The position numbers were made by a program, and so were the translations under genes. The notes below the pieces were generated by a model that was given only the letters and a program-made list of their open reading frames with translations, was not told where the DNA came from and did not search any database. Positions 30,404 to 31,249 of a stretch of DNA of 64,000 bases are shown here, piece by piece; positions within the stretch are counted from its first letter, which is position 1; each line of letters starts with the position of its first letter. This DNA comes from an uncultured Chlamydiae bacterium (GTDB taxonomy: Bacteria > Chlamydiota > Chlamydiia > Chlamydiales > JAJFMB01): contig OY969110.1 in NCBI GenBank assembly GCA_963697995.1, forward strand, positions 1,063,404 through 1,127,403, read 5' to 3'.

Positions 30404-31249
30404 ATGACAAAAGAGCAAGCTTCATACGAAGTTAAAGTCACTTTAGCAGAAATGTTGAAGGGGGGAGTTATCGTCGATGTGACAAGCGCTACAACAGCAA
30501 GAATTGCAGAGGATGGGGGGGCTGTTGCGGTTGTGGCTATAGAAGAGGGGCTTGTGACAAAAATGGCTTCTGCTGAAACGATTCAAAAAATTCAAGAAGC
30601 GGTTTCGATTCCTGTGATTGCCAGATGCCGCATAGGGCACTTTGTCGAAGCGCAAGTTTTAGAGGCGCTTTTCTTAGATTTTATCGATGAGAGCGAGAAG
30701 TTAAAACGAGTCGACGATTTTAATCATATCGATAAACACCAGTTTAGAATCCCTTTTATTTCCGGCTGTTCCGATTTAGGACACGCTTTAAGACGAATTG
30801 GGGAGGGAGCTGCTCTTCTTAGAACGGAATCTGCCACTTTAAATGGGACTGTCACAGAGCTTCGCACTCTTATGGGGCAGATTAAAGCCTTGGCGTGCAA
30901 GGACAGTTCAGAACTCATGACGGAAGCGCATCGATTGATGGCTCCTTACCATTTAGTTGAGCAAGTAGCAAAAGCTTCTGCCCTACCGGTTCCTCTCTTT
31001 GGATTTGGAGGGGTAGAAACCGTCGCAGATGTGGCCCTTTTAATGCAACTTGGTGCTTCGAGTGTCTTTGTTGGCTCTCAAATTTTTGAGGAAAAGGAGG
31101 CATTAAAAAAAGTAAAAGCACTCACATCGGCAGTTATCCATTATACTGATCCTGAGAAGCTTGCGGATTTATCTGCTGGCATTTTGGAGAAGGAGTCCCA
31201 AGGGGAAGAGATGCAGCAAGAGATTCTCGCAGAGAAGCGCGGCTGGTAA
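30404..31249 (+). CDS. PdxS (PLP synthase lyase subunit) homolog with substituted catalytic lysines; probably a non-catalytic paralog
   Basis: Collinear with PdxS ([98 protein letters not shown], C-terminal RGW). However, it reads IPVIAR where PdxS has IPVMAK, and LRTESA where PdxS has LRTKGE. Confidence 0.7.
   Translation: [281 protein letters not shown]

Follow-up and report, generated by a model that had tools for sequence, protein, structure and literature searches.

The PdxS-like gene and its lesions

This study concerns a PdxS-like gene in a 64,000-nucleotide stretch of DNA from an uncultured Chlamydiae bacterium (contig OY969110.1), the whole of which is referred to as the window. PdxS is a subunit of the two-component pyridoxal 5'-phosphate (PLP) synthase, and PdxT is its glutaminase. 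The product of the gene in the window, here called PdxS*, has lost both catalytic lysines and has been kept under selection. The lesion columns were placed by HMMER against solved PdxS/PDX1 structures and by MAFFT against canonical chlamydial PdxS, and the offsets to 2nv2_A returned the literature numbers D24, K81, and K149 of the Bacillus subtilis protein exactly. The features of the gene and its product are as follows (Bs, B. subtilis; At, Arabidopsis; Pf, Plasmodium falciparum).

30404..31249, + strand: PdxS-like coding sequence, 281 residues from ATG 30404 or 287 residues from TTG 30386
30386..30388, + strand: likely true start TTG, with an AGGGG Shine-Dalgarno sequence at 30374-30378, 7 nucleotides (nt) upstream
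30476..30478, + strand: Asp25, the catalytic Asp24 of Bs, kept (alignments)
30542..30547, + strand: Glu47/Glu48, junction of an 8-residue deletion that removes the alpha2' lid (alignments)
30623..30625, + strand: Arg74 (AGA) at the column of the Schiff-base lysine, Bs K81 / At K98 / Pf K83 (HMMER, MAFFT, codon read)
30629..30649, + strand: R76-x-x-H79-x-x-E82, oligomerisation motif (PfPdx1 R85/H88/E91), kept (alignment)
30827..30829, + strand: Glu142 (GAA) at the column of the swinging (relay) lysine, Bs K149 / At K166 / Pf K151 (HMMER, MAFFT)
30845..30850, + strand: Gly148/Thr149, junction of a 4-residue deletion; the GTG phosphate loop (site P1, after beta6) is gone (alignments)
31016..31018, + strand: Glu205 in the beta7 loop beside the old P1 phosphate site, GGIATP changed to GGVETV; A205E in all three clade members
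31073..31081, + strand: GSQ for the GSG phosphate-binding loop (beta8), residues 224-226 (alignments)

The open reading frame (ORF) was intact over 281 codons and ended in KRGW. The protein matched the Pfam family SOR_SNZ (PF01680) with an E-value of 2.6e-65, and its residues 3-281 covered positions 6-298 of the 298 positions of NF003215 (E 3.2e-87). These full-length matches confirmed an earlier reading of the same DNA, made from its letters and ORFs (the original prediction), that the protein is collinear with PdxS through the C-terminal RGW. Its scores were under the trusted cut-offs of the NCBIfam PdxS equivalogs NF003215 (292.7 vs 395 bits) and TIGR00343 (264.7 vs 438.45 bits). When solved structures were ranked by HMMER, Arabidopsis PDX1.3 and PDX1.1 came first (approximately 2.6e-74), followed by PDX1.2 (2.6e-70) and then by bacterial PdxS. 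An AlphaFold2 model built from 50 sequences had a mean predicted local distance difference test (pLDDT) score of 86.8 and a predicted template modelling (TM) score of 0.82; in Foldseek, its TM score was 0.87 against AtPDX1.3 and 0.85 against PDX1.2/1.3 complexes and B. subtilis Pdx1, with a range of 0.83-0.87 over all of these. PdxS* is thus predicted to keep the (beta/alpha)8 fold of PdxS. The tblastn alignment with canonical PdxS began at TTG 30386 (LRKENGM vs MRKKTGM). Since the N-terminus read from this codon (MRKENGMTKEQ...) lines up with the MRK... of canonical chlamydial PdxS and the AGGGG Shine-Dalgarno sequence precedes it, TTG 30386 is probably the start, and the ATG 30404 chosen by the gene caller is less likely.

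The original prediction had placed an arginine and a glutamate at the two catalytic lysine columns and had described a shortened segment. Both substitutions were recovered by HMMER as well as by MAFFT, which means that the block alignment behind them was correct. The shortening was likewise found: the ERIPADIRAEGGVARM segment of canonical PdxS reads EEGLVTKM in the window protein, with 8 residues gone after Glu47 and helix alpha2' lost. Three further lesions had escaped that reading, namely the deletion of the GTG loop, which is the signature of site P1 (PMC8313854), the change of GSG to GSQ, and the replacement of the Lys187 equivalent (site P2) by His176. Glu205 might fill the old phosphate site and form a pair with Arg74. 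The equivalents of D24, D102, and R147 were still present, as were the P2 residues H108, R130, and R131. The methionine count was halved (8 residues vs a canonical mean of 16), the losses including VIMDV to VIVDV, AVMALE to AVVAIE, PVMAK to PVIAR, and AAMIRT to AALLRT. These four positions are presumed by us to line the ammonia tunnel of PdxS, what was measured being the halved methionine count only.

With these lesions, PdxS* is predicted to be unable to act as a PLP synthase by the known mechanism. None of the PfPdx1 single mutants D26A, K83A, and K151A is active, yet each of them binds and activates the glutaminase Pdx2, and K83A remains a dodecamer (PMC2266796).

The pdxS slot and the missing pdxT

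The window carries two TLC nucleotide translocase genes, a DUF2709 gene, and hrcA-grpE-dnaK, with a DnaK approximately 81% identical to that of named Parachlamydiaceae; the source organism is an amoeba-symbiont-type chlamydia. The surroundings of the PdxS-like gene were compared with those of related loci, whose gene orders are given below the blocks of the window.

27885..30373, + strand: conserved upstream block DUF2709 - tsaE - engB - RNase T-like exonuclease (ORFs, Pfam)
31250..33137, + strand: slot of pdxT in relatives, here holding a RhoGAP-domain gene (31327-32250) and a multi-pass membrane-protein gene (32252-32968)
33138..37830, + strand: conserved downstream block pgk - two TLC nucleotide translocases, in an order shared with L010 and L015
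Window and L010: DUF2709-tsaE-engB-RNaseT-PdxS*-RhoGAP-membrane protein-pgk-tlc-tlc
L015, canonical: DUF2709-tsaE-engB-RNaseT-pdxS-pdxT-pgk-tlc-tlc
L013, canonical: as L015 through pdxT
L012, canonical: as L015 through pdxS, plus a saccharopine dehydrogenase-like gene between RNaseT and pdxS

The order of the upstream block was shared before pdxS by L010, L012, L013, L015, L028, and L029. The pair of RhoGAP and membrane-protein genes also fills the pdxT slot in L010, the slot being occupied by pdxT in L013 and L015; the gene after pdxS in L012 has a PdxT-type N-terminus and ends at the contig edge after 206 residues. Since the gene in the window occupies the exact position of pdxS, it is, judging from gene order, the positional ortholog of chlamydial pdxS with pdxT replaced, and not a paralog or a duplicate. 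In the protein tree, PdxS* nested within chlamydial PdxS with a bootstrap value of 98.5%, apart from the eukaryotic sequence. On this tree, PdxS* is not related to plant PDX1.2 by descent.

In canonical loci, pdxT overlaps pdxS or starts at most 5 nt after it. The original prediction that no pdxT adjoins the gene held over the whole 64 kb, both in Pfam searches and by tblastn. No pdxT, pdxH, pdxK/Y, or pdxA/J was found in the window by Pfam searches of all ORFs of at least 120 residues, and tblastn with three chlamydial PdxT queries gave no credible match in the window, L010, L011, L018, or L028-L032. A PdxT-like match at 56228-56500 on the minus strand (E 0.015) was rejected as a chance match: it is antisense to a RhoGEF ORF, holds a stop, and was returned by two of the three queries only (second at E 0.15). 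No second pdxS copy was present within the window.

The PdxS-like gene lies 12-30 nt behind the housekeeping operon, and the RhoGAP gene stands beyond an AT-rich spacer that bears a promoter-like site for it; a promoter and terminator scan gave nothing beyond shuffle expectation. The RhoGAP gene (31327-32250, + strand) matched its domain at 8.5e-21, carries the arginine-finger motif GIFRVSS, and encodes a protein 69% identical to the L010 copy. The RhoGEF gene at 56037-57674 (+ strand; 5.3e-23) is the second eukaryote-type Rho regulator in the window. The products of these two genes are probably host-directed effectors.

Other genes of the window were also noted. A 981-residue NAD-specific glutamate dehydrogenase (GDH) of the Bac_GDH_CD family is encoded at 57671-60616 (- strand), and a small ELFV-type GDH that adjoins the DUF2709 block in canonical relatives is missing there in the window and L010. 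The region 4584-25495 has a lower GC content (0.35-0.41) and many genes for glycosyltransferases (GT2, GT1-like) and methyltransferases (FkbM, class I), a radical S-adenosylmethionine (SAM) protein, and, at 20176-21504, a eukaryote-type Glyco_transf_34 protein (GMA12/MNN10); many of its ORFs had no Pfam match. It is possibly an island for surface glycans or one gained by horizontal transfer.

Selection on PdxS* and recurrence of the lesions

A search of 5.8 billion proteins returned one identical protein (P0001, from a Logan contig) and, as close relatives, P0002 (74% identity, locus L011) and P0003 (71%, locus L010) only; the other matches were canonical chlamydial PdxS at 54-61%. A further candidate, P0005 (426 residues, 47% identity), was rejected because it is canonical PdxS in a chimeric or duplicated assembly. 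Among contigs of species-representative genomes, the protein matched only Anaerococcus PdxS, at 42-48% identity. P0002 and P0003 share with the window protein the K81R substitution, both deletions, and a degraded GSG loop, and the three are referred to as the window clade. The Arg74 column was encoded by AGA or AGG in all four related genes of this kind. The Glu142 column held Lys in P0002 and Leu in P0003. Since it thus reads E, K, or L among the three proteins, the position of Bs K149 appears to be no longer constrained in the window clade.

Selection was gauged by the raw proportions of nonsynonymous (pN) and synonymous (pS) differences, by calibration against neighbour genes, and by neutral simulation, the synonymous sites being saturated. 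Between the window and L010, the amino acid identity was 70.8%, pN was 0.179, and pS was 0.758 (saturated); over the comparisons with L010 or L011, pS was 0.76-0.79, again saturated, and pN was 0.18. Taking the synonymous rate (dS) of neighbour genes, 1.3-2.9, the ratio of nonsynonymous to synonymous rates (dN/dS) of PdxS* was roughly 0.07-0.16. In neutral simulations from the window sequence, none of 2000 runs kept an intact ORF at 0.4 or more substitutions per site. At 1.3 substitutions per site, the simulated genes held approximately 14 stops and retained approximately 13% amino acid identity; the observed values were no stops in three genes and 71-73%. Since pN was far below pS and no stops were present in three genomes, these comparisons indicate that PdxS* is a selected gene, not a decaying relic, and that purifying selection acts on it in at least three related genomes.

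The pace of change differed from that of canonical pdxS, as seen from the dN values of two pairs of loci.

Canonical pair, L013 vs L015: PdxS 0.147, the slowest of the block; neighbours 0.20-0.47; PdxS/RNaseT 0.47
Window vs L010: PdxS* 0.205, among the fastest; other genes 0.065-0.21, with the membrane-protein gene at 0.54; PdxS*/RNaseT 3.2

The value for PdxS* was close to those of tsaE, pgk, and the RhoGAP gene, and its pace relative to neighbours was approximately 7-fold that of canonical pdxS. In the protein tree, the root-to-tip length was 0.76-0.83 for the clade of PdxS* and 0.41 for canonical PdxS. Judging from these rates, constraint on PdxS* is relaxed.

Where constraint persists was examined in 174 columns that are conserved at 95% or more in 45 canonical chlamydial PdxS, scored over the three clade members. 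The residue was kept in all three in 100 columns, re-fixed to one derived residue in 17 (including K74R, M44V, A201F, A205E, and A210V), non-uniform in 50, and deleted in 7. The non-uniform set comprised K142 (E/K/L), residues 143-153, the GSG loop (GSQ/SAD/NHK, with DAS in a fourth relative), K176 (H/I/N), the alpha2' remnant, and the beta4-alpha4 loop. Since these are the old catalytic positions, they argue against a newly evolved active site in the window clade. The kept parts were the N-terminal helix, beta1, beta3-alpha3-beta4, HIDK, IPF, LG.ALRRI.EGA, APY.LV, LPVP, and GG...AD.AL..LG.

Further PdxS with such losses, termed dead PdxS below, came from JGI metagenomes scanned with a DNA pattern for residues other than Lys at the K81 column, and from a profile search of 1.84 billion representatives. 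K81 and/or K149 were lacking in 30 of the top 150 representatives, some of them fungal (Coemansia, Flagelloscypha) and some plant-like. Forms outside the window clade, and one intermediate, were as follows.

P0320 / L029 (6001-7544): K81R, K149S, alpha2' replaced; same slot; PNPOx gene (pdxH, PF01243) on the opposite strand at the place of pdxT
P0318 / L032: K81Q, D102I, R147M, K149R; behind RNaseT; without pdxT
P0322: D24G, K81Q, D102Y
P0121 / L018: D24E, K81R, K149R, larger lid deletion; other context (clpC ... lplA, mnmG)
P0100 / L028 (2978-3877): both lysines kept, GTG loop changed to KYIISERNISE, GSG to GSQ; same slot

In L029, from another chlamydial lineage, de novo vitamin B6 synthesis appears to have been exchanged for salvage at one locus. 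P0100, in which alpha2' carries R-to-E and R-to-H changes and no pdxT start was found in the 32 nt between its stop and the contig end, looks like a transitional PdxS. When a tree was made from the four housekeeping genes upstream, L029 grouped with the canonical L013 (79%), and a split of dead from canonical lineages had 6.6% support, in a neighbour-joining analysis with few taxa. In the protein tree, L018 joined the window clade with a bootstrap value of 79.5%, where long-branch attraction is possible. Since the window lineage and L029 were not joined in the housekeeping tree, PdxS was likely inactivated independently at least twice in chlamydiae.

The R-x-x-H-x-x-E motif was intact in all nine dead PdxS aligned, which come from several lineages; the P2 residues were retained in only 4-7 of these nine. 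The PfPdx1 mutants H88A, E91A, and RHE-to-AAA are monomeric (PMC2266796). Since the motif is kept and catalytically null PfPdx1 still oligomerises and binds Pdx2, an assembly-competent protein with a binding-type function is suggested.

Other PdxS-like genes were found in the same searches. L030 (4214-5071) and L031 (6001-7008) encode dead PdxS (K81N or K81Q) without pdxT in the context lnt-hypothetical-PdxS*-gltX; their contigs also carry ZapD, CoaE, prepilin peptidase, and autotransporter genes and look gammaproteobacterial, possibly from another intracellular group. L017 (158-802, - strand), L019, L020, L022, and L023, from sediment metagenomes, encode mini PdxS-like proteins of approximately 205-215 residues (SOR_SNZ 8e-26). 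In these, Ser stands at the K81 column (IPVIASCRIGHF), and neither K149 nor the alpha2' region nor the GTG loop is present. Among the neighbouring genes are those for a PAS histidine kinase, a SAM methyltransferase, and a rubrerythrin-like protein, and the host may be archaeal. A GC-rich soil bacterial PdxS in L027 (approximately 4048-4091) has K81R and retains K149, RGW, alpha2', and the GSG loop; either a pseudo-PdxS with one lesion or a variant due to sequencing could explain this. L016, L021, L024, L025, and L026 hold near-identical eukaryotic PDX1-like genes from peat or moss, with a K-to-R change at the first lysine and K166 kept, and these are probably the pseudo-PDX1 already proposed in Sphagnum (PMC10463551).

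A probable non-catalytic scaffold and its alternatives

The reading of PdxS* as a pseudoenzyme, put forward in the original prediction, was borne out at the levels of sequence, synteny, and selection. We think it probable, with considerable room for doubt, that an ancestral chlamydial pdxS has turned into a PdxS scaffold that is non-catalytic but able to assemble, in convergence with plant PDX1.2. The ancestral gene would have stayed in place while it lost the relay lysines, the alpha2' lid, the P1 loops, Lys187, and its pdxT, and the PdxS fold and the self-assembly residues would have been retained through the loss of catalysis. PdxS* would then work through binding, most likely assembled into a hexameric or dodecameric scaffold, to which a glutaminase of the PdxT/Pdx2 type or some other partner may still dock. 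B6 vitamers or PLP presumably reach the organism from its host; chlamydiae often lack any B6 route and must import PLP (PMC9997740).

Several points weigh against this interpretation. A rate faster than that of most neighbours would also fit a dispensable function under weak selection, and the sample for selection consists of three clade members plus singletons with saturated dS. The case for oligomerisation is built on the motif and on mutants of a distantly homologous protein, PfPdx1, of which K151A drops to hexamers (PMC2266796). Besides, the 64 kb seen are part of a genome in which a second catalytic pdxS or pdxT could still lie elsewhere.

The lesions of PdxS* resemble those of PDX1.2, in which K98 is replaced by R100 and K166 by Q168, alpha2' is truncated, the beta6-alpha6 loop is altered, and P2 is largely spared (bioRxiv 10.1101/717082). 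The first lysine is Arg in both proteins, and the second is Gln in PDX1.2 and Glu in PdxS*. The alpha2' region is shortened by 4 residues in PDX1.2 and by 8 in PdxS*, the segment compared having 77 residues in canonical PdxS, 73 in PDX1.2, and 69 in PdxS*. Both have an altered beta6-alpha6 phosphate loop and a retained fold, the latter as predicted for the window protein. In addition, the net charge of chlamydial dead forms (-8 to -17 vs a canonical mean of -5.4) recalls the inverted surface potential of PDX1.2 (bioRxiv 10.1101/717082). The two differ in that PDX1.2 is a heat-induced paralog that co-assembles with catalytic PDX1.1/1.3, whereas the gene in the window is a pdxS ortholog of independent origin, with pdxT deleted from its locus and no catalytic copy in 64 kb. 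Because PdxS* nests within chlamydial PdxS, its likeness to PDX1.2 is best read from the tree as convergence, not descent. The label PDX1.2-like given in the original prediction was therefore apt for the lesion pattern and probably for fold and assembly, but not for descent and probably not for the genetic logic, given the ortholog slot.

Other systems offer partial parallels. Canonical chlamydial PdxS of Parachlamydiaceae and Waddliaceae (P0011, P0096, and P0113, for example) is 57-61% identical to PdxS* and has the same neighbourhood on both sides, the same length, and the same C-terminal RGW; by comparison, PdxS* lacks K81, K149, K187, the alpha2' lid, the GTG and GSG loops, and pdxT. TrpA of Chlamydia trachomatis is likewise a (beta/alpha)8 subunit of a channel-linked two-component enzyme that lost catalysis and was kept as a non-catalytic partner (PMC8376405); there, TrpB is retained alongside and a regulatory role is shown, whereas the locus in the window has no partner gene. 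The PfPdx1 mutants D26A/K83A/K151A, which have lost the same catalytic residues, yet oligomerise and can both bind and activate Pdx2 (PMC2266796), differ in being laboratory point changes with intact lid and phosphate loops. They are at present the best guide to the abilities that a protein of this kind can retain. PDX1.2 has been described as restricted to eudicots (PMC6829848), and a comparative-genomics survey lists eight genomes with PdxS only (PMC9997740); no description of a bacterial PdxS pseudoenzyme was found in our literature searches.

A bolder form of the scaffold reading would be that the genome has no PdxS other than the dead one, and that the latter serves a purpose of its own for which catalytic PdxS is not required, for example as a self-assembling scaffold that docks and switches on the organism's own unlinked glutaminase or a host PDX2, or that co-assembles with host PDX1. 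This would have evolved repeatedly in obligate intracellular bacteria that no longer make vitamin B6 (in at least two chlamydial lineages and possibly in gammaproteobacteria). We put this forward as an unlikely but specific proposal.

A strict regulator of the PDX1.2 type would instead require catalytic PdxS (and PdxT) encoded elsewhere in the genome, with the dead subunit co-assembling with it and tuning PLP synthesis. The matched lesion pattern, the acidic net charge akin to the surface inversion of PDX1.2, and the kept assembly residues R76/H79/E82 fit such a role. However, the dead gene fills the sole ancestral pdxS slot, from which pdxT was deleted, no second copy occurs in 64 kb, and the slot in L029 has gained the salvage gene pdxH, which suggests that the de novo route was abandoned. 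A dead paralog beside a live one thus seems rather unlikely in the genome of the window, and we consider this explanation improbable.

The original prediction had also offered a neofunctionalised (beta/alpha)8 protein. In this case, PdxS* would be a new enzyme or a binder of a ligand in the residual pocket, such as a sugar-phosphate or PLP at the partly kept P2 (His108, Arg130, and Arg131, all present in the window protein). The retention of the D24, D102, and R147 equivalents and the fixation of K74R, A201F, A205E, and A210V in the clade would be in line with this possibility. On the other hand, the K142, GSG, and K176 columns vary among the clade members and were not re-fixed, P2 is incompletely retained across the nine dead forms, and the P1 phosphate loops are deleted. 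An enzyme of this kind is disfavoured, and we judge the alternative as a whole to be just as improbable as the strict regulator.

It is more doubtful still that PdxS* is exported into an amoeba or protist host, where it would join PDX1 or dock PDX2 and alter B6 or glutamine metabolism. An interaction with host PLP synthase had been raised as a possibility in the original prediction. The elements on which Pdx2 docking and assembly depend, namely the RHE motif and the N-terminal helix, are conserved, and dead PfPdx1 mutants still activate Pdx2 (PMC2266796). The next gene encodes the eukaryote-type RhoGAP and a RhoGEF lies at 56037-57674, so that the genome encodes putative host-manipulating proteins, and dead PdxS also occurs on the gammaproteobacterium-like contigs L030/L031, whose lifestyle is unconfirmed. 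Against this, PdxS* shows no secretion-signal evidence, and its gene trails the housekeeping operon closely, whereas the RhoGAP gene is set off by the spacer with its promoter-like site.

A gene in decay, that is, a relic of PLP synthesis that is still undisrupted, would account for the raised rate relative to neighbours and canonical PdxS, for the loss of pdxT, and for the intermediate P0100 with both lysines kept and the GTG loop lost. Such a relic is very unlikely in view of the ORF intact in three genomes with saturated synonymous sites, the pN far below pS, the absence of stop-free neutral runs at 0.4 or more substitutions per site, and the 100 of 174 conserved columns kept. Finally, PdxS* can hardly be an active PLP synthase that uses ammonium with Arg74 standing in for Lys81: PdxS alone supports growth of a B. 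subtilis pdxT mutant with extra ammonium (as cited in PMC9997740) and R100 of PDX1.2 was speculated to form an imine (bioRxiv 10.1101/717082), but single K83A or K151A mutants of PfPdx1 are inactive (PMC2266796), PDX1.2 with the same K-to-R change is inactive (bioRxiv 10.1101/717082), and PdxS* also lacks the lid and both phosphate loops.

The lesion set of PDX1.2 arose independently in bacteria and in the ortholog itself, following the loss of pdxT and likely at least twice, and the protein was kept under selection. In plants, the function of the pseudoenzyme is read as the tuning of a catalytic paralog; the present case raises the possibility that the PdxS scaffold holds a selectable non-catalytic role that is independent of a live paralog, and a simple bacterial system would make such a role easier to find than in plants. 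The loci can also be arranged as a stepwise dismantling of a two-component enzyme during host adaptation, with P0100 first (lysines kept, GTG loop lost) and the window clade, L018, and L029 at a later stage (lysines lost, pdxT replaced by effector-like genes or pdxH). P0003, P0318, and P0324 are annotated by JGI as 'PLP synthase pdxS subunit', and pathway calls based on the presence of pdxS will over-predict de novo B6 synthesis in chlamydiae and other symbionts.

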